Shown here: positions 3,935 to 59,726 of the stretch, one piece after another
How the letters are laid out: each line of letters begins with the position of its first letter
How positions within the stretch are numbered: position 1 is the first letter of the stretch
DNA from: Desulfosoma sp.
Lineage (GTDB): Bacteria; Desulfobacterota; Syntrophobacteria; Syntrophobacterales; DSM-9756
DNA: 64,000 bases
Assembly (NCBI GenBank): GCA_037481835.1
Contig: JBBFKW010000015.1
Coordinates: 32,001 to 96,000, forward strand
Direction: 5' to 3'
The notes under the pieces: model-generated
Seen by the model: the letters and a program-made list of their open reading frames with translations, nothing else
Database searches by the model: none
What the model was told of the DNA's origin: nothing
Position numbers and translations under genes: made by a program

Positions 3935-6541
3935 ATGGTCATGGAAAGCATCGTGGAATCCCTGAAGAAGCAAAGGGAGCAGGTTCTGCACAGTTCGGAC
4001 GAGGAGACGCTGCGGCGGCATATGAGCCTACTGGAGATCGCCGTCATCAGCCTCCACAACCGATTGGTCAATCGCATGGCGTCGGAATCGGAACGGTTCC
4101 GATCCAGCGGCGCCATTGTGGCCATGGGGAATTTGGGCCGCGGTGTGTTGGGCCCCCAAGATCCTGTGACTTTGTTATGGCTCCGTACGGAAACCTTTCC
4201 CTGGGACGAAACGGCCCAGCAGGAAATCACCGCCCCGCTGGTGGAAGCCGGGTGGCGGGTGAGCCTGCGCTGCGCGACCATTCCCGAGCTCCTTGAAGAG
4301 GCGGAATCGCACCTGGCGTTTTTTTTCGAACTCCTGGACGCGCGGTACCTTTCCGGCAACCGCCAGTTGATCGGGGAGCTGGATCATGCCCTGGATGATT
4401 TCATCGCTGAGCATCAGCAGGTCCTTTTCGATGAGCTCTACGTGGGGATTCGAGGTCGCCATGCACGGTTTTCCAAGGCCGAAGACTGGCTGGAGCCCGA
4501 TGTGCTGGAGAGCCCCGGAGCCCTCAGGGACATTGACTCCATTCGTTACGCCGCACGCATCCTATTGGATGTGCGCTGCTTCGACGACGCCATCTTTCAG
4601 GGTTACCTCACGCGAAAGGAAGTGGACCGGCTGCAAGGCGCCGAAAAGAAGCTTCTCAAGTGGCTGAACCTGCTTCGAACCGTCAAGGGGGACCGGCAGA
4701 GCGTGCTGGATTTTCAGGTTCAGGAAATCCTAGCGGAAAAATTGGGCTACAGCGGACGGTCCGGGTTCCTTCCCGTGGAATCGTTCATGCAAGAAGTCCA
4801 TGAGACCCTCCATGAAGTGTTCTGCGTCAGTTCGGAGTTTTGCGAGCGACTCCAGGAGACGGGAAAGATCGCAAGCGCCCCGGCGCCTCCCGCCGAGCGC
4901 GTCCATGTGGAAGAAGGGATGAGCCTCCTCGGCGGGAGGCTCCACGTGGATCCGGCGCGTTATGAACCGTCGGCGGCCAACGTGATCCGTCTCTACAGCC
5001 TGGCCGCCCGCCACAAGGCTGGTTTTTCCAGCGCCACGCGCCGGTGGCTGCACCATCACCGCAGCGTGGTGGAAACCGCCGCCGCCGATCCCGGCGTCCA
5101 GGAAGCCTTCCTGGACCTGGTGGCCTCCGATGACGGCCACCTGTCCGTCGTCCGAAGGTTTTACAACGACGGGTTTCTACGGGCTCTTGTTCCGGAAACG
5201 GCCTTGGTCCACGCCCTGGTGCAGCATGACGCGTTCCATGTCTATCCCGTCCATGAACACCACCTGAGGACTCTTCGGGAAATTAAGCGATTGCAGGCGG
5301 GCGAGTATCGCGACGAGGAGCCGGAGCTGACGGTCTTGGCGCAGGAGACGGCCGAGAACCGGTGGCTCCTGCTGGCGGCCTTGTTCCACGACATCGGCAA
5401 GCACGTGGGAAGCCGTCACGCCAAGCACGGAGCCGACATGTTCCCGCTCATCGCACGGCGCCTCGGCTTGAGCCCCGAGGGCACCGAGCTGGTGACCTTC
5501 CTCATTCGCCATCATCTGCTCCTGATGGACACCGCCTCCATGAGGGACCTGGGGGACATGGAACTCCTCGTGCAGTGTGCCCGGACCGTGGGGGATCCGG
5601 AAAAACTGCACCTGCTCATGATCTTGAGCTTTGCCGACATGATGGCCACGGGCCCCCGTGCCGCGCAAAAGTGGCGGGAAACCCCGGTCCGGGAGCTGTA
5701 CCAGCGGTTGGCCGATCTTCTGGAGAAGGGAGAGCCCGGTGAGGAGATCCTGGCGGAACGTGTACAACGCCTGAAAGAGGCGGTCTTCGAAAGGGTGGCC
5801 GACCTGGTGGATCGATCCCGCCTGGAAGAGCATTTCCGCGACATGCCGCCGCGCTACGTGCTGACCAGTTCGCCGGAAGCCGTTGCCCGGCATTTGAGGT
5901 TGGAAATGGAGCTCGGCCCTGAACCGGACGCCTTCGTCTGGGAAGTGCAGAAGGAAAACGGCGGCGTGGAAATCACGGTGCTCAGTCGGGAAATGCCCGG
6001 GTTCTTGGCCAAGTCGGCCGGGATCCTCACCCTGCACGATTTGGATATCCGGGATGCCAGGATCTTTACCAAGAAAAACGGGGTGATGATCCTCGTCTTT
6101 CGGTGCGGTTTCGTTTCGTCGTCGTCGGTGGAACCCGATTGGGCCTTGGTGCGGGCCGACTTGCGCCGACTCCTGGAAGGCCGGCTGGCCCTGGATTATC
6201 GGATCGCGTTTCACGCCGCTACCAGAGGGGCGGGGCGAACTCACCCCTTGATTCCCAGCCCCAGCCGTGTTCTGGTGGATAACGAGTCGGCGAGGGAATA
6301 CACGATTGTGGAAGTGTACACCATGGACCGCCCCGGGCTCTTGTACACCATCACGCGCACGCTGCTGGATCTCCAGGTGCGCATCTACGTGGCCAAAATC
6401 ACCACCAAGGTGGATCAGGTGGCCGACATCTTCTACATCAAAAATCACCGGGGGGAAAAGGTGACCGACCGGGAACAGGTGGAGGAACTCCGTCGGGCCC
6501 TGCTCTTTTATCTGGACGGGCCGCCCCGGGCGGCGACTTGA
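3935..6541 (+). CDS. glnD: GlnD-like protein (NT-like, HD and two ACT domains) with degenerate nucleotidyltransferase site
   Basis: QHDAFHVYPVHEH and FHDIGK (HD domain), DRPGLL ACT domain, KITTKVDQVADIFY C-terminus. Confidence 0.85.
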   Translation: MVMESIVESLKKQREQVLHSSDEETLRRHMSLLEIAVISLHNRLVNRMASESERFRSSGAIVAMGNLGRGVLGPQDPVTLLWLRTETFPWDETAQQEITAPLVEAGWRVSLRCATIPELLEEAESHLAFFFELLDARYLSGNRQLIGELDHALDDFIAEHQQVLFDELYVGIRGRHARFSKAEDWLEPDVLESPGALRDIDSIRYAARILLDVRCFDDAIFQGYLTRKEVDRLQGAEKKLLKWLNLLRTVKGDRQSVLDFQVQEILAEKLGYSGRSGFLPVESFMQEVHETLHEVFCVSSEFCERLQETGKIASAPAPPAERVHVEEGMSLLGGRLHVDPARYEPSAANVIRLYSLAARHKAGFSSATRRWLHHHRSVVETAAADPGVQEAFLDLVASDDGHLSVVRRFYNDGFLRALVPETALVHALVQHDAFHVYPVHEHHLRTLREIKRLQAGEYRDEEPELTVLAQETAENRWLLLAALFHDIGKHVGSRHAKHGADMFPLIARRLGLSPEGTELVTFLIRHHLLLMDTASMRDLGDMELLVQCARTVGDPEKLHLLMILSFADMMATGPRAAQKWRETPVRELYQRLADLLEKGEPGEEILAERVQRLKEAVFERVADLVDRSRLEEHFRDMPPRYVLTSSPEAVARHLRLEMELGPEPDAFVWEVQKENGGVEITVLSREMPGFLAKSAGILTLHDLDIRDARIFTKKNGVMILVFRCGFVSSSSVEPDWALVRADLRRLLEGRLALDYRIAFHAATRGAGRTHPLIPSPSRVLVDNESAREYTIVEVYTMDRPGLLYTITRTLLDLQVRIYVAKITTKVDQVADIFYIKNHRGEKVTDREQVEELRRALLFYLDGPPRAAT

Positions 6542-7621: not shown

Positions 7622-8578
7622 TCATCGCAGTTCGCACTGCAGGAGGTCCTGGACCACGCTGTAGGGGTCCGTTTCCCGGGCGGTGACTTTGCGCACCAGG
7701 TCGTCCAGGCTCACCCCCCGGCTTTCCATGCGCCGAAGGAGTTCCGCAAGCGCTTCTTCCCGCAGGGTTTCCAGGAGTTGCGTCTTGGCTCGCTTCTGGG
7801 TGACCGCTTCCCACTGACTCCGGTCGTTTTCCAAAAGGTATTGGCGATGGCGTTCCACGGCGTCCATGAGTTCCGGGATGCCGCGTCCTTTCAGCGCCTC
7901 GGTTTCGATGATCGGCGGCTCCCAGTGCTGGTCCCCGAGGCGGCGCAGTCCCAATTCGATGAGGTTTCTCAATTCGCGCACCGTCTTGCGGGATCCTTCC
8001 CGGTCGGCCTTGTTGACCACGAAGATATTGCCGATTTCCATGATCCCGGCCTTGATGGCCTGGACTTCGTCGCCCATGCCCGGAATGGTCACGAGCACGG
8101 TGGTGTGGGCGCAATTGGCGATGTCCACCTCGTCCTGCCCCACGCCCACGGTTTCCACCATGATGATGTCCTTGCCCATGGCATCCAGGACGGTGATCAT
8201 GTCGTTGGTGGACTTGGTGAGCCCCCCGAAGTGGCCGCGGGTGGCCAAGGAGCGGATAAAGACGCCGCCGTCCAGGAAATGGCGCTGCATGCGGATGCGG
8301 TCGCCGAGAATGGCGCCTCCGGTAAAGGGGCTTGTGGGGTCGATGGCCAGGATGCCCACGGTCAGGCCCTTCTTGCGGTATTCCATGGCCATCTGGTCCA
8401 CGAGGGTGCTCTTGCCGACCCCGGGGGATCCCGTAAATCCCAATATGTACGCCCTGCCCGTATGAGGGTAGAGTTCCTTGAGGATTTCCCGGGCGGACGG
8501 CATCTGGTCGTCGATGTCGCGCAGGAGACGCGCGACGGCCCGCACGTCCCCCGCGAGGATTTGGTCCACGATGCTCAT
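7622..8578 (-). CDS. meaB: MeaB/ArgK-type GTPase chaperone of B12-dependent mutase
   Basis: GSPGVGKST, DPTSPFTGGAILGDRIRM, ETVGVGQ, NKAD. Confidence 0.93.
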   Translation of the reverse strand: MSIVDQILAGDVRAVARLLRDIDDQMPSAREILKELYPHTGRAYILGFTGSPGVGKSTLVDQMAMEYRKKGLTVGILAIDPTSPFTGGAILGDRIRMQRHFLDGGVFIRSLATRGHFGGLTKSTNDMITVLDAMGKDIIMVETVGVGQDEVDIANCAHTTVLVTIPGMGDEVQAIKAGIMEIGNIFVVNKADREGSRKTVRELRNLIELGLRRLGDQHWEPPIIETEALKGRGIPELMDAVERHRQYLLENDRSQWEAVTQKRAKTQLLETLREEALAELLRRMESRGVSLDDLVRKVTARETDPYSVVQDLLQCELR

Positions 8579-8593
8579 GGTCCGTGTCTCTTC

Positions 8594-9013
8594 CTAGGCG
8601 ACCATCGCCTTGCGTGGTTTCACATGGGTGCGGACCCACTGGACGATGTCGTCCAGTTTGGCTCCGGGCTCAAAGATTTCCTTGATGCCGATGGCCTTGA
8701 GTTTGGGGATGTCTTCCAAAGGGAAAATGCCGCCGCCGATGACGGTGATGTCTTCGGCGTTGTTTTCCTTCAAAAGTTCCATGATCCTTGGGAAAGAATA
8801 GCGGTGGGCCCCGGAAAGAATGCTCAGGCCGATCAGGTCCACATCCTCCTGAATGGCCGTGCTCACGATCTGTTCAGGCGTCTGATGGCATCCGGTGTAG
8901 ACCACTTCAAAACCTGCATCCCGGAAAGCCCGAGCGATGACGCGGGCCCCTCGGTCGTGTCCGTCCAATCCCGGCTTGGCGATCAATATGCGCAGTTTCC
9001 TTTCTTCAGCCAT
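8594..9013 (-). CDS. B12-binding small subunit of acyl-CoA mutase
   Basis: [10 protein letters not shown] (DxHxxG), SILSG, GGGI motifs. Confidence 0.93.
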
Positions 9014-9137
9014 GGAAACCATCCCTCCTGTGTCGTCGTCGTTGACCGTTGATTCTGCATTCGAAGCCGCCCGGGGCAGGCCTCCGGCGCAAAGGCGGAA
9101 CACCGCCGCCCGGCCCCGGCCTCATGGATGCCCAAAG

Positions 9138-10838
9138 CTAGAACGTTCCCGGGTCGGAATAGGTGCCGAAGACCTCGCGATAGAGATCGCAGCATTCCTG
9201 TTCCGTGGCGCCGGCCCGCACCGCGTCGATGAGCGCCGGCATGACGTTGTTTTCCCAACACGGAGGCCCTTCGCAGCGTCGGCGCAGTTCGTCCATGGCC
9301 TTCTGGAGCTTCACCTTGTCGCGCTTTTCCTTGAACTGTCGGGTGCGCTCGATCTGGAAATTTTCCAGCTCGTCGTCGATGCGCAGGACGAACTCCAAAT
9401 CGGGTCGAGCGCTGGGGAACTTGTTCACCCCGATGATGATCTTTTCGCCTTTTTCCACCTGCTGTTGGAAATGATAGGCGGCGTCGGCGATTTCCATCTG
9501 GGGATAGTCCTTTTCGATGGCGGCCACCATCCCTCCCAGCTCATCCAGCTTTCGGATGTAGACCATGGCCTCTTCTTCCATCTTGTCGGTGAGGGCTTCC
9601 ACGAAATAGGAGCCGGCCAGAGGGTCGATCACGTTGGCCACCCCGGTCTCATCGGCCAGGATCTGCTGGGTGCGAAGGGCGATGCGCACGGCTTCCTCGC
9701 TGGGGATCATGTACACTTCATCCAGCGAGTTGGTGTGCAGCGACTGGGTGCCTCCCAGGATGGCCGCCAGGGCTTCCGTGGTGGTCCGGATGATGTTGTT
9801 GTAAGGCTCTTGGGCCGTAAGAGAGCACCCCGCCGTCTGGGTGTGGAAACGGCACATCATGGAACGCGGTTTCTGGGCCTTGAACCGATCTTTCATGAGG
9901 CGGGCCCATAGCCTTCGAGCGGCGCGCATCTTGGCGATTTCTTCGAAGAAATCGATATGGGAGTTCCAGAAGAAGGAAAGGCGCCCGGCGAAGTCGTCCA
10001 CCTTGAGGCCCCGCTTGATGCATTCTTCCACGTAGGTGATGCCGTCGTAGATGGTAAAGGCCAGTTCCTGCACCGCCGTGGCCCCGGCTTCCCGGATGTG
10101 GTAGCCGCTGATGCTGATGGTGTTCCAGCGGGGCACTTCGTACGTGCCGAATTCCACGGTGTCCACGACGAGCCGCAGGCTGGGTTCCGGGGGAAGCATG
10201 AGGGTTTTTTGGGCGATGAATTCCTTGAGGCAGTCGTTTTGGATGGTGCCGCCCAATTTCTTGCGATCGAAGCCTTGGTTTTCCGCGTTCGCGATATACA
10301 TGGCCCAGATGACCGAGGCGGGCGGGTTGATGGTCATGGAGGTGGTCACTTCTTCCAGGTTGATCCCGGCGAAGAGCCGCTGCATGTCGTCAATGGTGTC
10401 GATGGCCACACCGCATTTGCCGCATTCACCGCGGGCCACCGGGGCGTCTGTGTCATAGCCCATGAGCGTCGGGAAATCGAAGGCGGTGCTCAGTCCCGTT
10501 TCCCCGTGTTCGATGAGGTAATGAAAGCGCTTGTTGGTGTCTTCGGCGGTTCCCAGGCCCGCGAACATGCGCATGGTCCACAGTCTCGCCCGGTACATGG
10601 TGGGCTGGACGCCGCGGGTGAAGGGATATTGGCCGGGAAAGCCCAAATCCTGGGAATAATCCTTGTCCTTGATGTCCAGAGGCGTGTAAAGGGCTTTCAC
10701 TTCCATGTCCGAGACGGTGGAAAACCGCTCCAGCCGTTCCGGCATTTTCTGCAAGGCCTTCCCATATTCCTGCAACCAGTCCTGGTACTCCTTTTCCATC
10801 CGATCCAGTTCCGCTTCTGAAAACATCTTTCGGCCCAT
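9138..10838 (-). CDS. acyl-CoA mutase large subunit, probably isobutyryl-CoA mutase type
   Basis: PGQYPFTRG, GTIQND, SISGYHIRE, GGTQSLHTN; specificity positions F (RMFAG) and Q (KEFIAQK). Confidence 0.88.
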   Translation of the reverse strand: MGRKMFSEAELDRMEKEYQDWLQEYGKALQKMPERLERFSTVSDMEVKALYTPLDIKDKDYSQDLGFPGQYPFTRGVQPTMYRARLWTMRMFAGLGTAEDTNKRFHYLIEHGETGLSTAFDFPTLMGYDTDAPVARGECGKCGVAIDTIDDMQRLFAGINLEEVTTSMTINPPASVIWAMYIANAENQGFDRKKLGGTIQNDCLKEFIAQKTLMLPPEPSLRLVVDTVEFGTYEVPRWNTISISGYHIREAGATAVQELAFTIYDGITYVEECIKRGLKVDDFAGRLSFFWNSHIDFFEEIAKMRAARRLWARLMKDRFKAQKPRSMMCRFHTQTAGCSLTAQEPYNNIIRTTTEALAAILGGTQSLHTNSLDEVYMIPSEEAVRIALRTQQILADETGVANVIDPLAGSYFVEALTDKMEEEAMVYIRKLDELGGMVAAIEKDYPQMEIADAAYHFQQQVEKGEKIIIGVNKFPSARPDLEFVLRIDDELENFQIERTRQFKEKRDKVKLQKAMDELRRRCEGPPCWENNVMPALIDAVRAGATEQECCDLYREVFGTYSDPGTF

Positions 10839-11230
10839 AAAGTGTCCCTCCTCCAACGATGAAAACCCTGTGCCCACGGTGCGGATGCGGCGCTTCCCCG
10901 TGCAGCTTCGACCAACGCCACGGGAGCTGCCTCATATCATGAGGGAAATATACGCATAGCGTCTTCGGTCGTCCGCTGCCTTTGCAGGGTCCAAAAGAGC
11001 AGCTTCCGACGGTGCCGTCAAGATTTCTTTCGAAAAGCGATGTCGTCTCGAGGGTGTCCGAGGTGGCATCGCGTGGAATCGAGGGTCTGGACCCGGGGAG
11101 CTTCGCTTGGGGGCCTCTGGCCGTGCCGATTTGATAAGGCCCATGGCAGGGATCGTGTGCGCCCTCTTCGGGCGCTGTGGCCGGAACGGCGTCGCCTGCG
11201 ATCGCCCGAGGCCACGCCCCATCCCCGCGG

Positions 11231-11310
11231 ACCTTAAAAGAGGGGGTTATGCGATGTCAAACAAAATTTTTTTCTCTTGACCATAGCAAAAACCCTGATG
11301 TAGGAAGAAG
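11231..11310. promoter_or_regulatory. possible back-to-back sigma70 promoters for the divergent operons
   Basis: TTGACA on - strand (11255-11260) and TTGACC on + strand (~11277), each with only a weak -10 hexamer 17-18 nt downstream, around an AT-rich core. Confidence 0.3.
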
Positions 11311-11816
11311 CCGAACTGGTACCAAGAACTCGAAAAGAGCGCGCTCCTCCTCGGACTCACGCCGTTCTTCGCTGCAGCGTCTCCCCCGCTCCCCGTTCAC
11401 GACCTCCCCGATCATTGGTACCGATTGGGAAATTTTTCCTTTCATCAAAAGCCGTGCCCTCAAGGGATGCTGTCCATGCGAGATCTTGGTTTCGGGCGGT
11501 TCGATCCTGCGCCGATGCAGGATGTCTTAGATCCTTTCGTAACCCGGCGTTCCATTCCGTTCAGACGGTGCGGTTTTCCCATGATGACCTGACGTGGCGA
11601 CATCCAGACTTACAGTTTCCTCAGCCGATGCCACCCCCGGCGCGCCGCAGGGCGAAGCGCCTTGGCGGGGGCGAAGGCGAAGGGGGGTATTGTTGTGCTT
11701 TTGGACGTTCGTGGATTCCTGCCGACGGAAAGGGGGTGGTGGACGAGCTCGGTCAATGGGGTGAGGGGCTTTGTGAGGGCAACGTGTTTTGAGGGTGAGT
11801 GAATAGGGAGGTTACA

Positions 11817-12053
11817 ATGTTTAAGGGGATGCCGAAAATTTTCTGGATCGGTATGTTGCTCCTTTACGGCTGGTTTTTTCTTTTCTTCATCCTAGAAATT
11901 ACCGTTCCCAAATTTCCTCTGATGAAATTCCTCGGGGTTCCTGCATGCTATGTCTACAATTGGATTGTGGGTCTTTGGATCATCAATATGATTGTCGCCG
12001 CTATTTTCTATCTGGCCGAGGAAGCCCGGGAAGCTCGGCTGGCCAAGAAATAA
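11817..12053 (+). CDS. small two-TM membrane protein, symporter accessory subunit (DUF485-like)
   Basis: Two hydrophobic segments, GGGAGG RBS, immediately upstream of an SSS gene. Confidence 0.75.
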   Translation: MFKGMPKIFWIGMLLLYGWFFLFFILEITVPKFPLMKFLGVPACYVYNWIVGLWIINMIVAAIFYLAEEAREARLAKK

Positions 12054-12063
12054 GGAGGAAAGA

Positions 12064-13659
12064 ATGGGTGCGAATCCAGTTGTTATCGCAGGAGCCCTGA
12101 TCTATTTCGCCATCATGATCGCCATCGGCTATTTCACCCGGAAAGCCGCCTTGAACGCGTCCGATTATTACGTGGCCGGCCGCAAGGTGGGCTCGTTCAT
12201 CAACGGGGCGGCGCTGGCTTCCACGTATCTGAGCCCGGCCAGCTTCTTGGGGCTTCCGGCCTTTATCTTTCTTTTGGGCTATCCCTTCTGGTGGGCCCTG
12301 GTGGGGATCATCGGCGGCATGCCCATCGCGACCCTCTTGACGGCCGCTCCCTTGCGCAAATACGCTCCCACTTCTTTTACGGACTACTACGCGGACCGTT
12401 ACGACACCAAGTGGATGCGCCTCATCGCGGGCGTTCCCACCATTATCGCCGGTTTTGCCTACGTGACCCTTTCCATCGTCGGGACGGCGCTCTTCATGCT
12501 CGCCATCTTGAAGCTCAACTACAATATTTCGGTGGTCATCGGGGCTCTGGTGGTTTTCATTTACGTCTTTTACGGCGGGATGGTGGCCACCACCTGGTCG
12601 GCGGCTTTTCAAGGGGTGACCATGGCTGCGGCGGCGGTCATCGGCGCCATTTACACCATCGCTCATTTCGGCGGCCTGAATCCCATGACGGATGCCATTC
12701 TGAGCGTGACCCCGAACTTCTTTAATTGCCCCTACGTCAGCGAAAAACCGTCCAGCGCCCTCATGGGCATGTGGACCGGCATCGTGGGCTTTTACTTTAC
12801 GTGGCATTTCGGTTTTGCGGCCATGCCATACACGGTGGTGCGCTTCTTTACGGCCCAGGACATCAAGTCGGCTCGGCGAAGCGTTTTCTGGGCCATCTTT
12901 TTCGGCGGTTCCATGTACGTGGGGTTGATCATTATCGGTTCGGCCGCCCGGGTGCTCATCGAAACCCTGCACCCCTACATGTCGGTTGAAGGCGTCAAAG
13001 ACGCCATGGGCGTGCTCAAGCACATGAAAGGCGTCTACGGCGTGGGTGGGGCGGCTGTCACGGACTACTCCATGATCGCCGCCATGGAAGGCTTGAAGAG
13101 CCCGTTGCTGTTGGCCGTGATCTGCGCCGGCGGTTTGGCCATCGCCATGTCCACGGCGGCCGGCTGGACCATGGTGCTCAACGTCCTGCTGGGCCGGGAC
13201 CTCATCGGCAAGGTCTTCGGGAGCAAATGGCCTGAGGAAAAGCCGGTCCAGGTGACCCGGATCATGACCGTCATCATCACGGTCATCTGCACTCTGGTGG
13301 CGTTCAGTCCACCCGCGCTGGTTCTGGATATTTCGGGCGCGGCCTTCATCGTGATCCTGTGCTCCGTCGGTCCTCCGCTCATCCTGGGGATCTGGTGGGA
13401 CAAGGCGAACACCACCGCGGCCGTGATCAACATCATTGTCATGACCGTTTTGTCGACCTACTCCTGGATGTACGCCAACAGCAAACTGGGAAGCGCTCAC
13501 TGGTTCTTCCTGAGCCAAAAAGGTGGTATTGTGACACCTCACCAGTTTTACTGGGTGTTCGTCGGGTTCGTATTCTTTGTGTTGGTCAGTTTGGTGACCA
13601 AGCCCAACAGGCCTGAGGTGATCCAGAAGTATTCTTACAATTTGAGACCGGAAAACTAG
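12064..13659 (+). CDS. sodium:solute symporter (ActP-like monocarboxylate permease)
   Basis: DYYVAGR, ASTYLSPASFLG, GGMVATTW, RFFTA...ARRS; many TM segments. Confidence 0.9.
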   Translation: MGANPVVIAGALIYFAIMIAIGYFTRKAALNASDYYVAGRKVGSFINGAALASTYLSPASFLGLPAFIFLLGYPFWWALVGIIGGMPIATLLTAAPLRKYAPTSFTDYYADRYDTKWMRLIAGVPTIIAGFAYVTLSIVGTALFMLAILKLNYNISVVIGALVVFIYVFYGGMVATTWSAAFQGVTMAAAAVIGAIYTIAHFGGLNPMTDAILSVTPNFFNCPYVSEKPSSALMGMWTGIVGFYFTWHFGFAAMPYTVVRFFTAQDIKSARRSVFWAIFFGGSMYVGLIIIGSAARVLIETLHPYMSVEGVKDAMGVLKHMKGVYGVGGAAVTDYSMIAAMEGLKSPLLLAVICAGGLAIAMSTAAGWTMVLNVLLGRDLIGKVFGSKWPEEKPVQVTRIMTVIITVICTLVAFSPPALVLDISGAAFIVILCSVGPPLILGIWWDKANTTAAVINIIVMTVLSTYSWMYANSKLGSAHWFFLSQKGGIVTPHQFYWVFVGFVFFVLVSLVTKPNRPEVIQKYSYNLRPEN

Positions 13660-13741
13660 CGGGAGCCGGACGGACCGGGGGAAGCCTCGGTTCGTCCTTC
13701 CCGCACGTCGCAGATGCGGGAAGGCACACCAGAGGGGATTC

Positions 13742-13975
13742 ATGGCGGAACAGAGTCACAACGAAAGATTGGAGCGCTGGGAGCGGCACCGTCGGCGATG
13801 GTATCTTTTATATTTTTACGTCGGGGTTGGGATTAACTTGTTGCTCTATTTTACAAAGCCTTACGGGTTCGATCCCAGCGGCAGTCTCTTCTGGGGATCT
13901 TTTTATGGTATTGGGATTCCCCTGTGCACCATGTTTCTCGGGGTTGCAATCCACCGAAAGCTTTTGGGCGCCTAA
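13742..13975 (+). CDS. small membrane protein, unknown function
   Basis: 77 aa, two hydrophobic segments, RBS-like GAGGGG, operon spacing. Confidence 0.6.
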   Translation: MAEQSHNERLERWERHRRRWYLLYFYVGVGINLLLYFTKPYGFDPSGSLFWGSFYGIGIPLCTMFLGVAIHRKLLGA

Positions 13976-13983
13976 ATTCTCGG

Positions 13984-14892
13984 ATGAAACCTATTCTGTT
14001 GCTTCCCGTCGTTTTAATCGTCTTGGGGGTGTGTGCATTCATCACGGAAGGCTCCGTCGCTTCGGCGGAGGTCACCTTTGTCCATGAGGTGGAAGCGGAA
14101 GATCTTTTTTCCGGCAAGAAGGTCGTCACATTGACCACCGGTTACGGGGCTGATGGGATCTACATGGACCAGCAACGGCAGTACACGGGATCCTGGATGC
14201 GACTGCTCTTCGGGGGGGTCCGCCGGGACCGCCGGACGGTGGTCATCTCCCTGGCCGGCGGGGACATTCGGGAGCTCGATTGGGGCCGGGATAAATGCCG
14301 CATTTTTCCCTTGGATCGGCTGAGGGATCCCTCGTGGATCCACAGCCTGGAAAAGCCTCGGGAGGATCTGCAGCCGCTCATGGCCGACCGGTACCAGGTG
14401 CAGGCTCCCCAGCTGACGATTACGAGCGACGAGGCGGAAGAACGCATCGGAAACTACCGATGCCGGCACGTGAAAGCGCACCTGCGGCTGGACACTTTCG
14501 ACAGGTTGCGGGAAGCGCACAGCGTGACCGAAGTGCAGCAGGATTTGTGGCTTTCGGACGAGGTGCCGGGGTTGGCGGAAAGCCTTCGGGTGCACCAAAG
14601 CCTGGGGGATCTTCTCGGGTTGGAAAAAGAGCGGTTCGGGCCCCTCTCTTTCCTCTTGTCCTATTGGCAGGGCCCTTTGCTGCCCATCGCCGTTGATTTG
14701 GAAAAGGTCCGGGGGTACCCGGTCAAAAGCACGGTGCGCGTTACGGCGCACTACATCCCCAAAGAAGGGGAATCGAAGAAGGTGAGTCGTGTCGTTAACG
14801 AAGAAACCAGTATGTTGAAGGAGGTCATCCCGGCCCTGGACAAAGCCTTGTACGCGGTTCCTCCCCATTTCTCAACGGTTCGTGTTCCTTAG
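13984..14892 (+). CDS. exported protein of unknown function (possibly DUF4412-like)
   Basis: N-terminal signal peptide; [10 protein letters not shown] and LWLS...GYPVKS pattern. Confidence 0.65.
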
Positions 14893-14938
14893 GTGTTCAA
14901 ATGGGTTAACGTATCGTTCCAACGAAAGGGAGTCATCC

Positions 14939-16282
14939 ATGGCACGAGAAGACTATTTCAAATGGGCGGAAAGCGTTCTCGATCCTTCCAAGACTTTTGA
15001 AAAGCCGGAAGCTTTGGCGGACATCAAGATTGTGGAGCTCTGCACCTTGATCTTGGGGCCTTCGTTGCCCGCATACTTATCCGAACTCGGCGCGACCGTC
15101 TTCAAAGTGGAACTGCCCGGTATGGGCGACACCATGCGGTCCCTGACGCCTTTCGCCAAGTTTTTCAACGGAGCGGCCATGGGATGGCTGAAGGAAGCCC
15201 GAAACAAGTATCATTTGGCCATCGACGTGCGCGTGCAGGAAGGGGCGGAGCTCTTCAAAGAGCTGGTCAAGCGCTCGGACGTGGTGGTGGAAAACCTGCG
15301 GGCCGGCACCATGGACAAATGGGGGATCGGCTACCGCCAGCTCCGAGAAATTAATCCGCGCATCATCTACATCGCCTTGAACGGGTTCGGCCAATGGGGC
15401 CCGTACTTGGAACGGCCGTCCTACGACGCCATCGCCCAGTCGGAATCGGGGGAAGCCTGGATCAGCGGCTTTCCCGATAAGCTGCCCATGAAGGCCGGCA
15501 TTTGGTTGGCGGACTATTACGGAGGCCTCGTCGGCGCGGTCGGAGTGCTCGCCGCCCTGGCCCACCGGGACCGCACGGGACGCGGCCAATACATCGAATA
15601 CTCCCAGGCGGAAAATCTCATGCGGGCCATGGACTGGACTTGGCTTTACCAGCACTTCACCGGCAAGTGCCGCGAGCGGTACGGCAATCGGGACGTGAGC
15701 ATCTGCCCGGCGGATATTGTTCCCAGCAAGGACGGCGAAATGGTGGCCATCGGCGCCGCCACGGACAAACAGTTCCAAGGATTGTGCGAGGCCATGGGAA
15801 AGCCGGAACTGGCCCGGGATCCGCGTTTCGCCACCCACCTGGAACGCCTCAAGGAAGAAAACGCCCTGGAATTGTTGGCGACCATCCGCCAATGGGCGGC
15901 TGGGAAGACCTATGGGGAAATCGACGAGCTGGCCGGCCGCTACGGGTTCGGCGCCCAAAAGGTGTCCAACGGCAAGGACCATTTCGAAGACGAACACCTG
16001 CGCAAACGCAATTTCACGTATTACGTGGATGATCCCATCTATGGCGATTTTTATGAAGAGGGCATTGCGCCGAAACTTTCGGAAACGCCGGGTCGGATCA
16101 AATGGGCCGGAAAGCCCGTGGGCTTCGACAACGAATACGTGCTCAAGCGCTTCCTCGGGCTGAAGACCAAGAAGATCAAATACCTCAAGGAAAAGAACAT
16201 TATCGGCAAATGGGTGGATGTGCCTCCCGGCCGCAAACCGCCCGAAAGGTGGGACGGCAAATCGGGCATCCTTCTCGCCTAA
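14939..16282 (+). CDS. class III (CaiB/BaiF) CoA-transferase, subunit retaining catalytic Asp
   Basis: [49 protein letters not shown]. Confidence 0.9.
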
Positions 16283-16338
16283 GCATTAACGAAGCATCCT
16301 TTGTGACGGAAAACTCTATGGTTTCAGGGAGGACATCG

Positions 16339-17661
16339 ATGCATATGGAAAAGGAAAAAAGCTGGGGCGATTGGATTCGGGAACTGGACGATCCGGCGAA
16401 GAACCGAGAAAAACCCGAAGCGCTCGATCACATCACGGTGCTGGATGTGAGCTATGCCAATATGGCGGGGTGTTTCTGCACGTCCACGCTGGCCGAATTC
16501 GGGGCCAACGTCATCCGCATCGAACCCCCGGACGGGGATCCGGCCCGCACTTTCTCCCCGTGGGGCTACATGCACATGGGGACCGGTTTGGGGTACCTGA
16601 ACGAAGGGCGGAACAAGCACCACGTGACCTTGAACCTAGAGTCCGAAGAAGGGCAGGAGATCTTCCGAAAGCTGGCCAGGAGAGCCGATGTGGTGGTGGA
16701 AACCTTCCTGCCGGGAACCATGGATGCCTGGGGCATCGGCTACAGGCAGCTCAAAGAACTCAACCCGCGCCTCATCTACTGCGCCCTCTACACCTACGGG
16801 CAGTTCGGCCCCAAGGCCGCGTGCGGCAAAGCCGACGTGGACGTGGTGGACCAGGCCTATTCGGGCGTGGTGTCGGTGAGCGGCGAACCTCCGGAAGATC
16901 CCCAGAATCCCAAACCCTCGGAAGTGCCCACCAAGCAAGGGAACTGGATGGGCTGGTATGCCGGCGGGGCCTGGGCGTCCGTGGCCATTCTCGCCGCCCT
17001 TCACTACAGGGTCGGCTCGGGCAAGGGCCAGTTCATCGACGTGTCCCCGGCGGAAGCCTACGGCCGGTGCATCAATTACGGGATCACCTATTACTACGGC
17101 TTCAAGGACACCATTCCGCGCGTGGGCAACTACGATGTGGGCGTTTTCCCTTACACCTACTTCAAGTGCAAGGACGGCTTTGCCTTCCTGTCCGGGTTCG
17201 CCGACCCCAACTGGAAGGCCTTGTGCACCATTATCAACCGTCCCGATTTGCAACAGCAGTTCCCCACCATTTTCGAACGGCTCAATGTGGACAACATGAA
17301 GGTCATGTACAAGGAAATCGAAAAGTGGACCACGGCCCACACCTACGACGAGATTTTCGATGCGGTCATGGATTACAATAAAAATATCGGCCAGGGCGTG
17401 GTCGTCCCCGGTCGGATTTCCTCGCCCATGGATACCATGAAGGCGGAAAACTGGTGGGTGCGCATGGCTTTGGAAACCATCGACGATCCCCATTACGGCG
17501 AAGTCACCATCGCCAATCACGCCCACAAGATGACGGAAACGCCGCCGCGCGTGAAATGGATTTGTCGGCCCGTGGGGGCGGACAACTACTACGTTTATGC
17601 CAGGATGTTGGGCTACGGGCCCAAGCGGCTGGAAGAGCTCAAGGAAAAAGGGATCATCTGA
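16339..17661 (+). CDS. class III CoA-transferase paralog, probably non-catalytic subunit
   Basis: FGANVIRIEPPDGD, RNKHHVTLN, DVVVETFLPG; MGWYAGG at the catalytic Asp position. Confidence 0.88.
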   Translation: MHMEKEKSWGDWIRELDDPAKNREKPEALDHITVLDVSYANMAGCFCTSTLAEFGANVIRIEPPDGDPARTFSPWGYMHMGTGLGYLNEGRNKHHVTLNLESEEGQEIFRKLARRADVVVETFLPGTMDAWGIGYRQLKELNPRLIYCALYTYGQFGPKAACGKADVDVVDQAYSGVVSVSGEPPEDPQNPKPSEVPTKQGNWMGWYAGGAWASVAILAALHYRVGSGKGQFIDVSPAEAYGRCINYGITYYYGFKDTIPRVGNYDVGVFPYTYFKCKDGFAFLSGFADPNWKALCTIINRPDLQQQFPTIFERLNVDNMKVMYKEIEKWTTAHTYDEIFDAVMDYNKNIGQGVVVPGRISSPMDTMKAENWWVRMALETIDDPHYGEVTIANHAHKMTETPPRVKWICRPVGADNYYVYARMLGYGPKRLEELKEKGII

Positions 17662-17681
17662 TCTCGCAGTGTTGTGAACCC

Positions 17682-17717
17682 CAAAGAAAAAGGCCACGCT
17701 CGTGGCCTTTTTCTTTG
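17682..17717. terminator. intrinsic terminator, possibly bidirectional
   Basis: Perfect inverted repeat caaagaaaaaggccacg-ct-cgtggcctttttctttg just after the CoA-transferase stop. Confidence 0.8.
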
Positions 17718-17743
17718 CGCCGGCTCCGCATCGGGGTGGCCCA

Positions 17744-19552
17744 ATGATTCCTCCAAAAGAATTCCTTCGAAAAATCAAGCCATTTTCTTTTCTCCCCGAA
17801 GAGCACCTCGCGGCCTTGGTGGGGGGGTTGGACGTGGCCATGTACCAGGCGGGGGCCGTCATCTTCAACAAGGGGGACGTGTGCCCGTCTGTCTTCCTGG
17901 TTTTTTCGGGCCTTGTGGGACTCTACGACGGTGACGAGGTGGTGGACCTGGTCGCTAAGGGGGAAATCTTCGGCCTCCTTTCCGCCTTGCACCGGAGCCC
18001 GTCCTATTACGAAGCCCGTGCGCTGGAGGACAGCCTCTGCTACCTCATCGACGCTGAAGTCTTCGAGAGGGTCTATCAGGCGCACAGCGCCTTCGCTTCC
18101 TTTTTCAGCACGTTCATCGAACGGCGCTTTCGATCCTTCTCCATGCTCGCCCGGGATCAAGAGTCGGTCCAGGAGGGCGCGGCTTCCGTTCTCGTAGAAA
18201 CGCTTCTCACCAAGGGACCGGTCATGTGCGCCCCCGATACCCCCGTCCGGGAAGCCGTGCGCATCATGGATACCCATCGGGTGGGTTCGGTGATCGTCGT
18301 CCAAGAAGGCAAGCCCGTGGGCATCCTGACCAACAGGGACATGCGACGGGTGCTCCTTGAAGGGTCTGCGGACAGCCTGGTCAAGGAGTTCATGTCGTCT
18401 CCGGTGACGACCGTGGATCGTCGGGCTTCAGTGCTGGAAGCCTACAGCACGCTGCTCAGGACCGGGATCGACCACCTGGTCGTTGCGGACTCCGACGGAA
18501 TCTGGGGCGTGGTAACAAGCAAGGACGTGCTCTCACAGTTGGAACCGTCCTCGTCCATTCTTTCCCTGTATCGCAAGGTGCTCAAGGCCACGGACTTGGA
18601 AGAGTTGCAGAGCGCTTTTCAAGCCATTCGATTGGCCGTATCGGAAATGGCCCTCAAGGGCACCCATTTTTATCAATTGTCCCGCATGATCACCTCGGTC
18701 TACGATATGGTGGTCATCAAGGTGATTCAAAGGCACACTGGGGAGGAGGGCGAAGGACAGGATTTTCTATGGGTGCACGTGGGCAGTTCCGGCCGCAAGG
18801 AACAGATTCTCACCACGGATCAAGACAGTGCCCTCATCTGCGGTCTTTCGTGCCCGCGTGTGGACGCCGCCGAGCGCATCAGCAGCGATCTAGCAAAAGT
18901 CGGCATTCCCCAGTGCCCTGCGGGGTACATGGCCTCCAATCCCCGTTGGCATCTCAGCCTCGAGCAGTGGAAGGAGCAGTTCCGGCGCTGGTTCTTGGAA
19001 CCGATTCCGGACCATGTGCGTTACCTCACAGTGTTCTTGGACCTGCGGGGAGTCTACGGCCGGATGGAGCTGCTCGGCAGCCTCATCGATTACATTCACG
19101 AGACCGTCACCAATCAGGCAGTGCGCTTTCTTGCCTACGATGCGGCTCTTCATGAACCGCCCATCGGCATTTTCGGGATCAAACATAGGGATCGCGGGAT
19201 CGATTTGAAACGTTTCGGCATTTATCCTATTGCCAACGGCATTCGCGTGATGATCCTGGACCACAGGATGCTGCGCATCACCAACACGCGGGAACGCATC
19301 GAAGCGCTGAGGGACGGCGGCGTTTTGGGGAAAGAAACTGCAGGCGACCTCCTCGAGGCCTATGCGTTTCTCCAGGATCTTCGGTTGCGGCACCAGGCCC
19401 GGCGACTGAAACACGGCGGAGCCGAAACGAATCTTCTCATGGCTGAACATCTGGACAAGATGGATCTCCTGGTCCTCAAGGAATCCCTTAAGGTCGTGGC
19501 CTCTTTCCAGAAGAACCTCAAAGCCCGTTACGGCGTCGATCGAGGGCTTTGA
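17744..19552 (+). CDS. cNMP-binding / CBS pair / DUF294 nucleotidyltransferase protein
   Basis: N-terminal cNMP domain (GEIFG), two CBS repeats (GILTNRD, GVVTSKD), GSSGRKEQ...TDQD, CPAGYMASNPRW. Confidence 0.88.
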   Translation: MIPPKEFLRKIKPFSFLPEEHLAALVGGLDVAMYQAGAVIFNKGDVCPSVFLVFSGLVGLYDGDEVVDLVAKGEIFGLLSALHRSPSYYEARALEDSLCYLIDAEVFERVYQAHSAFASFFSTFIERRFRSFSMLARDQESVQEGAASVLVETLLTKGPVMCAPDTPVREAVRIMDTHRVGSVIVVQEGKPVGILTNRDMRRVLLEGSADSLVKEFMSSPVTTVDRRASVLEAYSTLLRTGIDHLVVADSDGIWGVVTSKDVLSQLEPSSSILSLYRKVLKATDLEELQSAFQAIRLAVSEMALKGTHFYQLSRMITSVYDMVVIKVIQRHTGEEGEGQDFLWVHVGSSGRKEQILTTDQDSALICGLSCPRVDAAERISSDLAKVGIPQCPAGYMASNPRWHLSLEQWKEQFRRWFLEPIPDHVRYLTVFLDLRGVYGRMELLGSLIDYIHETVTNQAVRFLAYDAALHEPPIGIFGIKHRDRGIDLKRFGIYPIANGIRVMILDHRMLRITNTRERIEALRDGGVLGKETAGDLLEAYAFLQDLRLRHQARRLKHGGAETNLLMAEHLDKMDLLVLKESLKVVASFQKNLKARYGVDRGL

Positions 19553-20154
19553 TGCTTTTGAGTGAAGCGACCTTTGTGTCCGTGGACGTGGAAACCACGG
19601 GACTGGATGTGCGCCGTGACGAGATCATCGCTGTGGCCCTTGTGCCCATCAAGGCCATGAAGATCCGAGTTCGGGACGCCTATTATTCCTTGGTGAAACC
19701 CAGAAAATATCGACTGGAAACCATGAAATACCATGGTATCGGCATGGACGCCCTTGGGCAGGCGCCGACCTTCGAGGACATTGCTGAAGCGCTGGAACGC
19801 CGGTGCGAGGGGATTCTTGTGGGGCATTGCGTGAACATCGATTACCAATTTCTTCGGCGCCATTTCAAAAGCGCAGGCATTTCATTTCAGAGAGATATCG
19901 TGGACATCGCCGATGTGGAAAAATGGATCGGGCAAAAAACCAGCCATCGGCCCACCTGCGATGAACTCAGCCTGGACGCCTTGATCACACGATACGGCTT
20001 AAAGGAGCACTACCGCCACCACGCCTTGGCGGACGCGTTTTTCGCCGCCCAGATTTTTCAGATTCAGATGACCAAACACGGCGTGCCCGCCGTGGAGCAG
20101 CTCTTGGAGCTTCTCAGGAATCAGAAACTGTGCGACGCTTCGTTTTTGTTTTGA
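19549..20154 (+). CDS. DEDDh 3'-5' exonuclease (DNA Pol III epsilon-like)
   Basis: VDVETTGL, GH...D, HHALADA; overlaps the DUF294 stop codon. Confidence 0.88.
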   Translation: MMLLSEATFVSVDVETTGLDVRRDEIIAVALVPIKAMKIRVRDAYYSLVKPRKYRLETMKYHGIGMDALGQAPTFEDIAEALERRCEGILVGHCVNIDYQFLRRHFKSAGISFQRDIVDIADVEKWIGQKTSHRPTCDELSLDALITRYGLKEHYRHHALADAFFAAQIFQIQMTKHGVPAVEQLLELLRNQKLCDASFLF

Positions 20155-26958: not shown

Positions 26959-28104
26959 TTACAGATACTGGCCCCCCAGCTCCTCGATGACGGCGTCAAT
27001 GTTCTTGCCGGTTTCCTGTTCCAATTCCCTTCGGGCCCTTTCCAGGCGGGGGCGAAAGGCCGCAAGATCGTCCACGCAGCGCAAAGCGCCCCCATAGCGC
27101 CCCAGGCGGTACAGGATGCGGTCGTCGTCGGAAAGAGCCAAGTACTGGTCGATGATGCCCAGCATCTTGGCCTTGTCGCGGGGGAAGGTCCCTTCCAGAT
27201 TTTCCAGGAGGTTTCGCATGTGGTCGGAGGTGAGTGTGCTGTGAATGTTTTTCAGGTTCTCGATGAGAAGGCGGATTTCCCGCACCGTATCGTCGTCGGA
27301 AAGGGTCTGGAACGCGCCGGACGCCAGGTGATCCCAAAGCGGCGTATTGGGCGGGACGCGCAGGGTGCGCAGGCGGATGAAGTGAGGGTCGATGGCTTCC
27401 AGGACCCGAGCCGTCTCCAGGGCGTGTTCGCGGCTCCATCGCGTGCCGCCGAGCCCCGGCATGATGTATTCGGACAGCGTCATGCCCGCTTCCTTCACTT
27501 TGAGGCCCGCTTCAATGTGCTGCGCGGCGGTCGCTCCCTTGTCCATGAACTTCAGGACCGTATCGGATCCGCTTTCCAAGCCGATATGGATTCGGTCCAA
27601 ACCCGCCTCCCGGATTTCCCGCAGCTCCTCCACACTCTTTCGCGCCAGGGTGGCGCTTCGCCCGTAGGACGTCACGCGCGTGATGCCGGGGACTCTTTCC
27701 TTGAGGTAGCGCAGGGCTTGGACGAGATCGGCCGTGCGCATGATGGGGTTATTGGCGTCCTGCAAAAAGACCGTGCCGTCCCCGTGATAGAGCCAGACGG
27801 CCACGTGGCGCTCACAGCCGCTTCGAGCGGGATCGGTGAGGATCCGGTTGATGACCGGCGCGCTCACCGCTCCCCCTTCGCCCATGGACCACGAAAGGGC
27901 TTTCACGTCATCCACGATGGCCCGCACCGTGTCGATGTCGGCTTTGATTTCGGCCAATGATCTCCGACTGAAGGGCCGTCCCTTGTAGACGGGACAGAAA
28001 GCGCACCGATTCCACGGACAATTTCTCGTAAACCGCAGGAGCAAACTCCGCGATTCACTGGGCGGCCGGATCGGTCCCTGTTCAAAATGAAAACGCATTC
28101 CCAT
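26959..28104 (-). CDS. radical SAM protein
   Basis: IRPPSE...RNCPWNRCAFC (CxxxCxxC), FLQDAN, IGLESG. Confidence 0.88.
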   Translation of the reverse strand: MGMRFHFEQGPIRPPSESRSLLLRFTRNCPWNRCAFCPVYKGRPFSRRSLAEIKADIDTVRAIVDDVKALSWSMGEGGAVSAPVINRILTDPARSGCERHVAVWLYHGDGTVFLQDANNPIMRTADLVQALRYLKERVPGITRVTSYGRSATLARKSVEELREIREAGLDRIHIGLESGSDTVLKFMDKGATAAQHIEAGLKVKEAGMTLSEYIMPGLGGTRWSREHALETARVLEAIDPHFIRLRTLRVPPNTPLWDHLASGAFQTLSDDDTVREIRLLIENLKNIHSTLTSDHMRNLLENLEGTFPRDKAKMLGIIDQYLALSDDDRILYRLGRYGGALRCVDDLAAFRPRLERARRELEQETGKNIDAVIEELGGQYL

Positions 28105-28221
28105 GCCTCCACTGCCCTTCTTCGATCCCCGCAGGGTTGAGTTTCCCAGGGGCACTCAGTATATTCTTTTCGTTCGCTGGGTCCATGGACAAGAGCCCAC
28201 TCCAACCGAGGAGTTCATCGC

Positions 28222-36675: not shown

Positions 36676-36778
36676 GTGATTGTCAACTTTCATCCATGCG
36701 GGGTGGCCTAAGGGCGACCGTGATCGTTTAGAGCGATCCCTTTCGGGCCGGGGCGAGCGCGCTCGGGAAAGGAGACGG

Positions 36779-38893: not shown

Positions 38894-38930
38894 CAACCCA
38901 GGATTTGGGCTCTGGGAAAAGGAGGCGAAG

Positions 38931-57534: not shown

Positions 57535-57541
57535 AAACGGC

Positions 57542-59721: not shown

Positions 59722-59726
59722 GCGCT

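Follow-up and report, generated by a model that had tools for sequence, protein, structure and literature searches.

A 64,000-nucleotide stretch of a Desulfosoma sp. genome (contig JBBFKW010000015.1, positions 32,001 to 96,000; G+C ~60%; hereafter the window) contains an acyl-CoA mutase operon that diverges from a run of genes for a transporter and two class III coenzyme A (CoA)-transferases. The mutase has the active-site signature of isobutyryl-CoA mutases, the two arms recur together in related genomes, and the transporter beside them is interchangeable. From the gene content and its conservation we consider it probable, if well short of certain, that this cluster serves to catabolise or isomerise isobutyrate and butyrate.

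In the pathway we propose, a symporter of the sodium:solute symporter family (SSF), aided by small membrane partners, would import a short monocarboxylate, branched or straight. Two paralogous class III CoA-transferases, joined in a heteromer, would then form the CoA thioester from an existing acyl-CoA donor, without ATP, and an adenosylcobalamin-dependent isobutyryl-CoA mutase (large subunit, small subunit, and MeaB chaperone) would interconvert isobutyryl-CoA and butyryl-CoA, the latter proceeding to a beta-oxidation pathway whose genes lie elsewhere. One conserved control block would drive outward transcription of both the mutase operon and the operon of the transporter and CoA-transferases, and the genes for a DUF294 nucleotidyltransferase and a DEDDh exonuclease at the end of the transporter arm would lie outside the core module. 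Which acid is taken up, which acyl-CoA donates the CoA, whether the two transferases form a heteromer, whether the block acts as promoters, and which way the flux runs are points that we infer from the genes and their setting.

Gaps between genes are short inside each arm, the last two genes of the plus-strand arm overlap by one base, and the recurrence of the arrangement in related genomes makes it more than chance. A first-pass annotation of the window had proposed uptake of an acid, its activation by CoA transfer, and B12-dependent rearrangement, together with a post-translational switch belonging to the module; every gene that it named is present in its place according to Pfam and NCBIfam matches.

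Active-site signature of the mutase

The mutase arm lies on the minus strand. Its large subunit is encoded by an open reading frame (ORF) at 9138-10877 (Pfam MM_CoA_mutase, E 6.1e-216), with a true start that is probably ~13 codons inside the ORF because homologues are 566 amino acids long. The B12-binding small subunit is encoded by the ORF at 8594-9103 (Pfam B12-binding, E 6e-25; TIGR00640, 162.8 bits against a cut-off of 57.45); its translation contains the DxHxxG motif, and its true start is probably near 9022 or 9013. The third gene, at 7622-8578, encodes a MeaB-type G-protein chaperone of the mutase (Pfam MeaB, E 6.9e-93; TIGR00750, 354 bits against a cut-off of 240.75). Among the related loci described below, numbered from L001, the MeaB gene adjoins the mutase genes in L001-L009, L016, L037, and L040.

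Alignments to solved mutases place Phe105, Ala132, Gln223, and His260 of the large subunit at the positions of Tyr89 of methylmalonyl-CoA mutase (MCM), Asp117 of 2-hydroxyisobutyryl-CoA mutase (HCM), Arg207 of MCM, and His244 of MCM, respectively. The MCM alignments used entries 1req, 5req, and 2xij with Propionibacterium numbering, and the position of Tyr89 is fixed by 5req, which carries the Y89F substitution. Arg207 of MCM is the residue that binds the substrate carboxylate. In the alignment with HCM (4r3u), Ala replaces the Asp of the HCM motif 'stDfd' in the window protein and Phe replaces an Ile, and this Ile and Asp at two substrate positions of HcmA are presumably what defines that family. 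A literature search for the residue names Phe80/Gln198 found nothing relevant, and PMC2847961 gives no residue names.

The combination Phe/Ala/Gln/His is common to all 21 full-length mutases that lie beside a CoA-transferase pair, whether these are split enzymes (62-96% identical) or fused ones (35-37%). The crystallised IcmF of Cupriavidus has the identical four residues in an alignment with the fused mutase of L014, which is its orthologue at 1356 bits. IcmF interconverts isobutyryl-CoA and n-butyryl-CoA and acts less well on pivalyl- and isovaleryl-CoA (PMC10481361). The sequence features of the isobutyryl-CoA mutase/IcmF group are found in the window: a large domain, a B12-binding domain with DxHxxG, the Phe and Gln signature, and a dedicated MeaB. 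Membership of the MCM family is contradicted by the replacement of Tyr89 and Arg207 by Phe and Gln and by a PRK09426 score of 615 bits against a cut-off of 876, and that of the HCM family by Phe and Ala in place of the Ile and Asp of HcmA. On the strength of the signature residues we reject both of these identities. Because its active-site residues match those of IcmF and differ from those of MCM and HCM, we file the mutase as an isobutyryl-CoA type, with conversion between isobutyryl-CoA and butyryl-CoA as its predicted reaction. The first-pass expectation of a mutase that rearranges an isobutyryl/butyryl-type acyl-CoA is supported by this signature.

All named close homologues of the large subunit in the protein collection are labelled methylmalonyl-CoA mutase or acyl-CoA mutase family protein. 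Since these proteins fall in the group that has the Phe/Gln signature, they have probably been misnamed systematically.

Two known arrangements have the same composition of large subunit, B12-binding small subunit, and MeaB: the split IcmA/IcmB with MeaB of Syntrophothermus lipocalidus (the proposed cluster Slip_0757-0760; PMC5017805) and the fused IcmF of Cupriavidus metallidurans (4xc6). The window mutase shares the four active-site residues with IcmF, although it is only 35-37% identical to enzymes of the IcmF type. With the Syntrophothermus cluster it shares the setting of anaerobic fatty-acid degradation; there the split isobutyryl-CoA mutase with MeaB has been proposed for isobutyrate degradation and described as related to a sulfate-reducer group (PMC5017805). 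The window cluster differs from Slip_0757-0760, as well as from L057, in having no adenosyltransferase gene, and it differs from the former in having two class III CoA-transferases and a transporter linked to it, whereas the main text of PMC5017805 names no transferase, ligase, or activation.

Linkage of the two arms and their divergent spacer

GTDB genomes were scanned with an alignment of CoA-transferase 1 orthologues, which gave 75 loci onto which the window proteins were mapped by tblastn. In 31 close loci CoA-transferase 1 is 72-95% identical, and the other 44 are more distant. A mutase lies in the fetched flanks of 20 of the 31 close loci, as a split operon in 13 and as an IcmF-type fusion in 7. 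Among the 19 close loci with adequate flanks (at least 5 kb upstream and at least 9 kb downstream), 17 have a mutase, and so do 2 of the 44 distant loci (L037 and L057). CoA-transferase 2 adjoins CoA-transferase 1 in 69 of the 75 loci; the six misses comprise four contig ends, an artefact of a frameshifted gene in L044, and one real case in L046. The artefact, at L044:10001-11339, is a CoA-transferase 1 gene spread over two ORFs, through either a frameshift or an assembly error. The window's CoA-transferase has relatives in a Desulfosoma sp. (96% identical) and in Desulfacinum hydrothermale (91%), which points to a Desulfosoma-like member of the Syntrophobacteraceae as the source.

Three layouts were observed. 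In Syntrophobacteraceae the split mutase is divergent from the CoA-transferases, as in the window. In metagenome-assembled genomes (MAGs) of Desulfobaccales, for example L014, an IcmF gene lies on the same strand, together with genes for a thiolase, a 3-hydroxyacyl-CoA dehydrogenase, two acyl-CoA dehydrogenases, and a third CoA-transferase. The third layout, in a Methylomirabilota MAG (L057), groups an adenosyltransferase, the mutase, an enoyl-CoA hydratase, a thiolase, and an acyl-CoA dehydrogenase. The mutase arm and the transporter/CoA-transferase arm are therefore linked, given the mutase in 17 of 19 well-flanked loci and the conserved divergent promoter-like block described below, and since the linkage occurs in three layouts and with two mutase architectures it appears to be functional. 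The first-pass annotation had made its module depend on the two arms staying together in relatives, which this synteny supports.

The arms are separated by a spacer of 940 bp. Alignments and blastn identified in it a conserved control block at 11233-11310, which has no strand of its own and consists of two opposed -35-like hexamers with an A/T-rich tract between them, TTGACA facing the mutase genes and TTGACC facing the transporter arm. The sequence TGTCAAACA is invariant in 14 of 14 split-mutase spacers and is, when read towards the mutase, the hexamer TTGACA. The outward TTGACC is followed 17-18 nt further on by a TAG-type -10-like hexamer in 12 of the 14 split-mutase loci, and the block is kept even where the transporter is a different one (L004). 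This pattern suggests that the control block is a pair of divergent promoters. A consensus promoter/terminator scan returned fewer promoter-like sites than in its shuffles, and a search of the whole window against Rfam at gathering thresholds gave 0 matches, so that no known riboswitch explains the spacer.

Two ORFs in this region, 11177-11530 and 11415-11792, were rejected as genes, as they match no family, were not picked by a codon-usage gene caller, and align poorly among relatives. From the control block to the first start codon of the plus-strand arm there are ~500 nt (11311-11816), a long leader whose sequence is poorly conserved, with no Rfam match and no convincing ORF; its equivalent in Desulfacinum hydrothermale (L004) is ~765 nt long.

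CoA-transferases, carriers, and the DUF294/exonuclease pair

The two CoA-transferase genes lie on the plus strand at 14939-16282 (subunit 1; Pfam CoA_transf_3, E 3.9e-110) and 16339-17661 (subunit 2; E 2.3e-94), each matching the whole profile. The proteins are paralogues with 37% identity, and neither reaches an NCBIfam equivalog cut-off, the best score for subunit 1 being 220.6 bits against a cut-off of 700. A D-x-x-x-Q motif is invariant in both, as Asp163/Gln167 in 22 subunit-1 sequences and as Asp168/Gln172 in 25 subunit-2 sequences, and Asp163 aligns with Asp168. We take this Asp to be the catalytic nucleophile of class III CoA-transferases. The putative substrate of the window's pair is suggested by genomic context.

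Modelling of the two CoA-transferases as a complex gave a score of 0.97 against 0.00 for the best control, with runs agreeing in at least 98% of contacts and a partner predicted local distance difference test (pLDDT) value of at least 93. Of 157 solved complexes 116 attained this mark, as did 2 of 215 mismatched pairs. The model supports binding between the two subunits. Heteromeric class III enzymes presumably include the succinyl-CoA:malate transferase SmtAB. Like the genes of the benzylsuccinate CoA-transferase BbsEF (9fn0), those of the window are two adjacent CoA_transf_3 paralogues; both chains of 9fn0 are detectable relatives, and the confidently modelled interlocked heterodimer would be a further likeness. 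The relationship is a distant one, with scores of 141 and 87 bits against whichever 9fn0 chain matches better and no equivalog cut-off reached, and the context in the window is a mutase with a non-carboxylate signature, not a dicarboxylate pathway.

Further pairs are found in the distant loci L027-L036, L039, L042, and L055, which belong to Aquificota and unclassified MAGs, and in L045-L054, which are Syntrophobacteraceae paralogues. They occur as tandem double pairs or beside genes for an aminotransferase, an aspartate kinase, and a LeuA-like protein. The Syntrophobacteraceae paralogues, 55-59% identical, are also beside amino-acid biosynthesis genes. With no mutase near, these distant pairs probably have another function.

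Upstream of the CoA-transferases, the plus-strand arm begins with a symporter cassette. Its central gene, at 12064-13659, encodes an SSF transporter (Pfam SSF, E 7.5e-52) that is likely a carboxylate importer. The first-pass label 'ActP-like' holds as far as the SSF family and no further, for even its best NCBIfam matches stay below the curated cut-offs: TIGR03648 (VC_2705) 212.1 of 320.75 bits, PRK09395 (ActP) 163.4 of 750, and TIGR02711 138.3 of 1099.25. The 'accessory protein' of that annotation, directly upstream at 11817-12053, is a 78-amino-acid membrane protein with two hydrophobic segments that is 58-83% conserved in L001-L003, L006, and L040. This layout resembles that of symporters with a small two-helix partner of the DUF485 or VC_2705 small-subunit family, and the 78-amino-acid protein matches neither family; it has no Pfam or NCBIfam family, with Pfam searched even at E up to 10.

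The annotation's two unknown proteins follow the symporter. After an 82-nt gap (13660-13741), which folds into two stacked G+C-rich hairpins of -44.4 kcal/mol with no U-run after them, comes a 77-amino-acid membrane protein (13742-13975, plus strand) that is 65-94% conserved in the five symporter-bearing loci and has no Pfam or NCBIfam match. The second, at 13984-14892 on the same strand, has 302 amino acids and a signal-peptide-like N-terminus, so it is presumably exported, and it too is without a Pfam or NCBIfam match. Its structural model (mean pLDDT 83.3) has a predicted LolA-like fold, the top PDB folds being LolA, LolB, RseB, and LprG with E from 1.7e-5 and template modelling (TM) scores of at most 0.56. 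A weak Atlas lead, DUF4412, carried by 20% of one cluster, agrees with this fold. The protein evolves fast, with 38-68% identity among relatives, and speculatively it may be a periplasmic holder of a hydrophobic ligand.

The full symporter block is found only in L001-L003, L006, and L040. In 18 other loci, including that of Desulfacinum hydrothermale and all seven IcmF loci, a membrane protein of ~430 amino acids takes the place of the symporter, and no locus has both. Close mutase-linked loci always have one of these transporter genes, either the symporter cassette (the five loci named) or the 430-amino-acid protein (14 loci). The transporter of the module is thus interchangeable, and the importer placed beside the enzymes by the first-pass annotation is a constant of the relatives, though its type varies. 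The 430-amino-acid protein, found at L004:8585-9865, L009:8508-9794, L014:13107-14405, and in 15 further loci, adjoins the CoA-transferase pair. It is polytopic and 70-90% identical among loci, with a high content of Trp and His, and its three spaced 'PQP' motifs point to repetition within the protein. Searches of Pfam and NCBIfam gave no match, Atlas places it in unnamed clusters only, and its structural model is poor (mean pLDDT 55).

The last two genes of the plus-strand arm encode the DUF294 protein, with the domain order cNMP-CBS-CBS-DUF294-DUF294_C (17745-19552, Pfam), and a DEDDh (DnaQ/RNase T-like) 3'-5' exonuclease (19552-20154; Pfam RNase_T, E 1.2e-21; TIGR00573, 103.8 bits against a cut-off of 71.5). 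The N-termini of relatives make the ATG at 17745 a likelier start for the former than 17702. The ATG of the exonuclease gene overlaps the DUF294 stop codon by one base (TGATG), and translation of the two is predicted to be coupled. The translations contain the GS...DxD motif of DUF294 and the acidic and His motifs of the exonuclease, which look catalytically intact. A PDB sequence search with the DUF294 protein matched only its CBS and cNMP parts and gave no solved structure for the transferase half. The pair is separated from CoA-transferase 2 by a terminator-like hairpin on the plus strand at 17682-17717, consisting of an A-run, a G+C stem, and a U-run (-25 kcal/mol, z -7.67, 0 of 200 shuffles as stable). 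It was found by eye and by folding, the consensus terminator scan having missed it, and strong hairpins lie at the same place in L001, L002, and L003.

DUF294 and the exonuclease occur in 8 of the 31 close loci, always together and always next to or downstream of the symporter block, with the exonuclease after DUF294 in all 8; of the 20 close loci with a mutase, 15 lack them. The two genes come after the symporter block and before the CoA-transferases in L006, L040, L013, and L068, and in the window and L001-L003 the CoA-transferase pair sits between the symporter block and DUF294. Four genes and the hairpin thus lie between symporter and DUF294 in the window, and two small genes only in L006 and L040. 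Outside this lineage, a tblastn search of plasmid and chromid records gave 94 records, five of which were inspected. The exonuclease follows DUF294 in all five, with two small genes intervening in the Paracoccus record. A DUF485 protein and a cation/acetate symporter directly precede DUF294 in three of them (Paracoccus, Pseudomonas aeruginosa, and Microvirga), two with acs ahead, and no symporter is near the pair in the other two.

The window resembles the acs/DUF485 (YjcH)/ActP/DUF294/exonuclease run of Proteobacteria in having a small membrane protein, an SSF symporter, and a cNMP-CBS-DUF294 gene directly before a DEDDh exonuclease gene. It differs in a symporter below the ActP and VC_2705 cut-offs, a small protein with no DUF485 match, two extra genes after the symporter (the small membrane protein and the LolA-like protein), the insertion of the CoA-transferase pair and hairpin before DUF294, and CoA transfer plus a mutase in place of acetyl-CoA synthetase. 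The equivalent pair of Pseudomonas putida, PP_0354/PP_0353, is likewise in a short-chain fatty-acid setting and is a target of MxtR/ErdR. Deletion mutants showed no defect with acetate or with succinate, and the effects seen with propionate and pyruvate were moderate; the authors suggest control by protein modification while leaving the function open (PMC9927547 and bioRxiv 10.64898/2026.09.07.749794). Because the pair tracks the symporter block and follows acetate symporters in other lineages, it is best read as an already known, portable accessory of monocarboxylate symporters and not as a switch belonging to the module. In L067 (2116-9886) an additional symporter, a distant one (25%), is accompanied by a DUF294 paralogue of its own (28%) upstream of a DUF294/exonuclease/CoA-transferase run, and a mutase fragment is found at the contig edge.

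Competing explanations, physiology, and neighbouring genes

Several observations weigh against an isobutyrate/butyrate module. When whole sequences are compared, HCM is the solved enzyme nearest to the large subunit, at 578 bits compared with 484 for human MCM, and the split architecture is shared with HcmAB of Aquincola tertiaricarbonis (4r3u), though HcmA has Ile and Asp where the window protein has Phe and Ala. The signature excludes MCM and HCM but not related substrates, among them the pivalyl-CoA and isovaleryl-CoA that IcmF also takes, and the LolA-like exported protein hints at a ligand more hydrophobic than isobutyrate. Most class III CoA-transferases that have been characterised use dicarboxylic, hydroxy, or aromatic acids as substrates, and the best NCBIfam matches of the pair, all far below cut-off, are succinyl-CoA:mesaconate and succinate-glutarate transferases; a simple fatty acid would therefore be an unusual substrate for the family. 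Since dimers of class III enzymes are interlocked and comparable complexes, 9fn0 among them, have been solved, the score of the complex model may reflect likeness to these, and it would not distinguish a heterodimer from two homodimers. Pairs 65-69% identical to those of the window occur in Aquificota with no mutase, beside the aminotransferase, aspartate kinase, and LeuA-like genes and in tandem with a second pair. L021 and L043, both close and well covered, have no nearby mutase. Part of the linkage, finally, is shared ancestry, as most close loci come from one family.

Some of these observations would fit the same architecture working on a different substrate, such as pivalate or isovalerate, a longer branched fatty acid, or a hydroxy acid. 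The range of IcmF with the same signature (PMC10481361), the closeness to HCM, and the hydrophobic ligand suggested by the modelled LolA-like fold all favour this, as do the IcmF-type loci, where two acyl-CoA dehydrogenases are encoded along with a thiolase of the sterol-carrier type and its ChsH2-like OB-fold partner. The HCM motif residues are nevertheless replaced in the window, the four checked residues match crystallised IcmF exactly, and Desulforhabdus amnigena, named in the title of a paper on butyrate-to-isobutyrate conversion, encodes an 88% identical mutase, so we regard a different substrate as rather unlikely. A propionate module, in which the mutase would be MCM and the CoA-transferases would be succinyl-CoA:propionate transferases, would agree with the labels of the named homologues, with the placement of the organism in Syntrophobacteraceae, and with the resemblance of the symporter to monocarboxylate carriers. 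Gln at the Arg207 position and Phe at the Tyr89 position, in the window as in the 21 linked full-length mutases, and a module with no carboxyltransferase or epimerase gene make this explanation barely credible.

It could also be that the arms share no function and are merely co-inherited within one family, since most linked loci are from Syntrophobacteraceae and flanking genes with no obvious role (DnaJ-like, radical SAM, ABC transporter, and cobamide genes) are syntenic as well. Yet the linkage recurs with another mutase architecture and order in Desulfobaccales and with a further order in Methylomirabilota, it survives exchange of the transporter, and the spacer has a conserved two-way promoter-like block, which leaves mere co-inheritance very unlikely. 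More needs to be said for the switch postulated in the first-pass annotation, in which DUF294 and the exonuclease would nucleotidylylate and de-modify the mutase, CoA-transferase, or symporter in response to cyclic-nucleotide or adenylate signals. The protein combines a cNMP-binding domain, two CBS domains, and a GlnD/GlnE-like nucleotidyltransferase with a helical partner domain; the motifs look catalytically intact, the genes share the strand of the plus arm, and a similar idea of protein modification has been voiced for Pseudomonas PP_0354. The pair nonetheless accompanies the symporter block and not the enzymes, being confined to 8 of the 31 close loci and to 5 of the 20 that have a mutase. 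It follows DUF485 and an acetate symporter in three of the five inspected records, with no symporter in two, and here it lies beyond a terminator-like hairpin. The Pseudomonas deletion mutants had mild phenotypes only, and for a partner of a nuclease family a nucleic-acid or oligonucleotide substrate fits at least as well. That the module has a switch of its own is thus quite improbable, and this part of the first-pass proposal is not supported.

A bolder combination of ideas would make DUF294/DEDDh a reversible nucleotide switch that gates symporters, the CoA-transferase pair the missing isobutyrate:acyl-CoA transferase, and the 430-amino-acid protein a new short-chain fatty-acid carrier. The switch would read cyclic-nucleotide and adenylate signals, add and remove nucleotides, and gate either the symporters themselves or messages or proteins produced alongside them, and as a cassette it would move between acetate (Acs/ActP) and isobutyrate (CoA-transferase/mutase) pathways. 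Taken jointly, we hold these proposals to be unlikely.

An isobutyrate/butyrate module would match a known physiology. Strain WoG13 reportedly activates its acids with CoA-transferases. The overall chemistry predicted here is like the reciprocal isomerisation of butyrate and isobutyrate known from this strain and from Desulforhabdus amnigena, to which no genes are assigned in the literature consulted. The reference list of PMC7082340 includes a 1996 title on butyrate-to-isobutyrate isomerisation by D. amnigena and a 1992 title on strain WoG13, and that paper describes the interconversion as a routine observation in anaerobic digesters and sediments. D. amnigena encodes the mutase 88% identical to that of the window mentioned above. 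In the literature consulted, only the mutase of the interconversion has been tied to genes (PMC5017805). If the CoA-transferase pair and the two carriers are part of the pathway, genomes could reveal which sulfate reducers and syntrophs use isobutyrate, and many database entries named methylmalonyl-CoA mutase would have to be renamed.

A literature search found no paper joining isobutyryl-CoA mutase with class III (family III, CaiB) CoA-transferases, and none with both Desulfosoma and isobutyrate. The physiology and each of the parts are known; what appears to be undescribed, in keeping with the first-pass view of the system, is the combination of a paired CoA-transferase, two mutase architectures, and two alternative carriers, one of them with DUF294 and the exonuclease. 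Desulfacinum infernum (L003), with the symporter, DUF294, and exonuclease, and D. hydrothermale (L004), with the 430-amino-acid protein and neither DUF294 nor exonuclease, form a natural comparison that could help to reveal the role of the widespread DUF294/exonuclease pair.

Cobamide genes, which the first-pass annotation had noted in the same window, are indeed present at 54377-59721 (two CbiA/CobQ-type genes, CbiB, and a CobD-like aminotransferase), but 34 kb away from the module. In 11 related loci a radical SAM gene is convergent after CoA-transferase 2, and in L016 (15703-21335) and L037 (9024-17613) a small resolvase-like gene and the cobamide genes come directly after it; in L037, CbiB, a CobD-like gene, and inositol-1-phosphate synthase come next as well. 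In the window the radical SAM region (26959-28545) and the cobamide region (54377-61927) are separated by ~26 kb containing HSP20 genes, KatG, Fur, two acyl-CoA synthetases, and others. Because they are adjacent in L016 and L037, the cobamide genes would be old neighbours of the cluster that were split apart in the window.

The two acyl-CoA synthetase genes, at 36680-41069, are in tandem and encode ADP-forming enzymes of 737 and 712 amino acids with CoA-binding, Succ_CoA_lig, and ATP-grasp_5 domains; a 4HBT thioesterase gene (35731-36144) precedes them. On the other side of the cluster, 1 kb from MeaB, a GlnD-type uridylyltransferase gene (3935-6541; GlnD_UR_UTase, HD, and ACT domains) is part of a left flank conserved in L001 and is positionally unrelated to DUF294.

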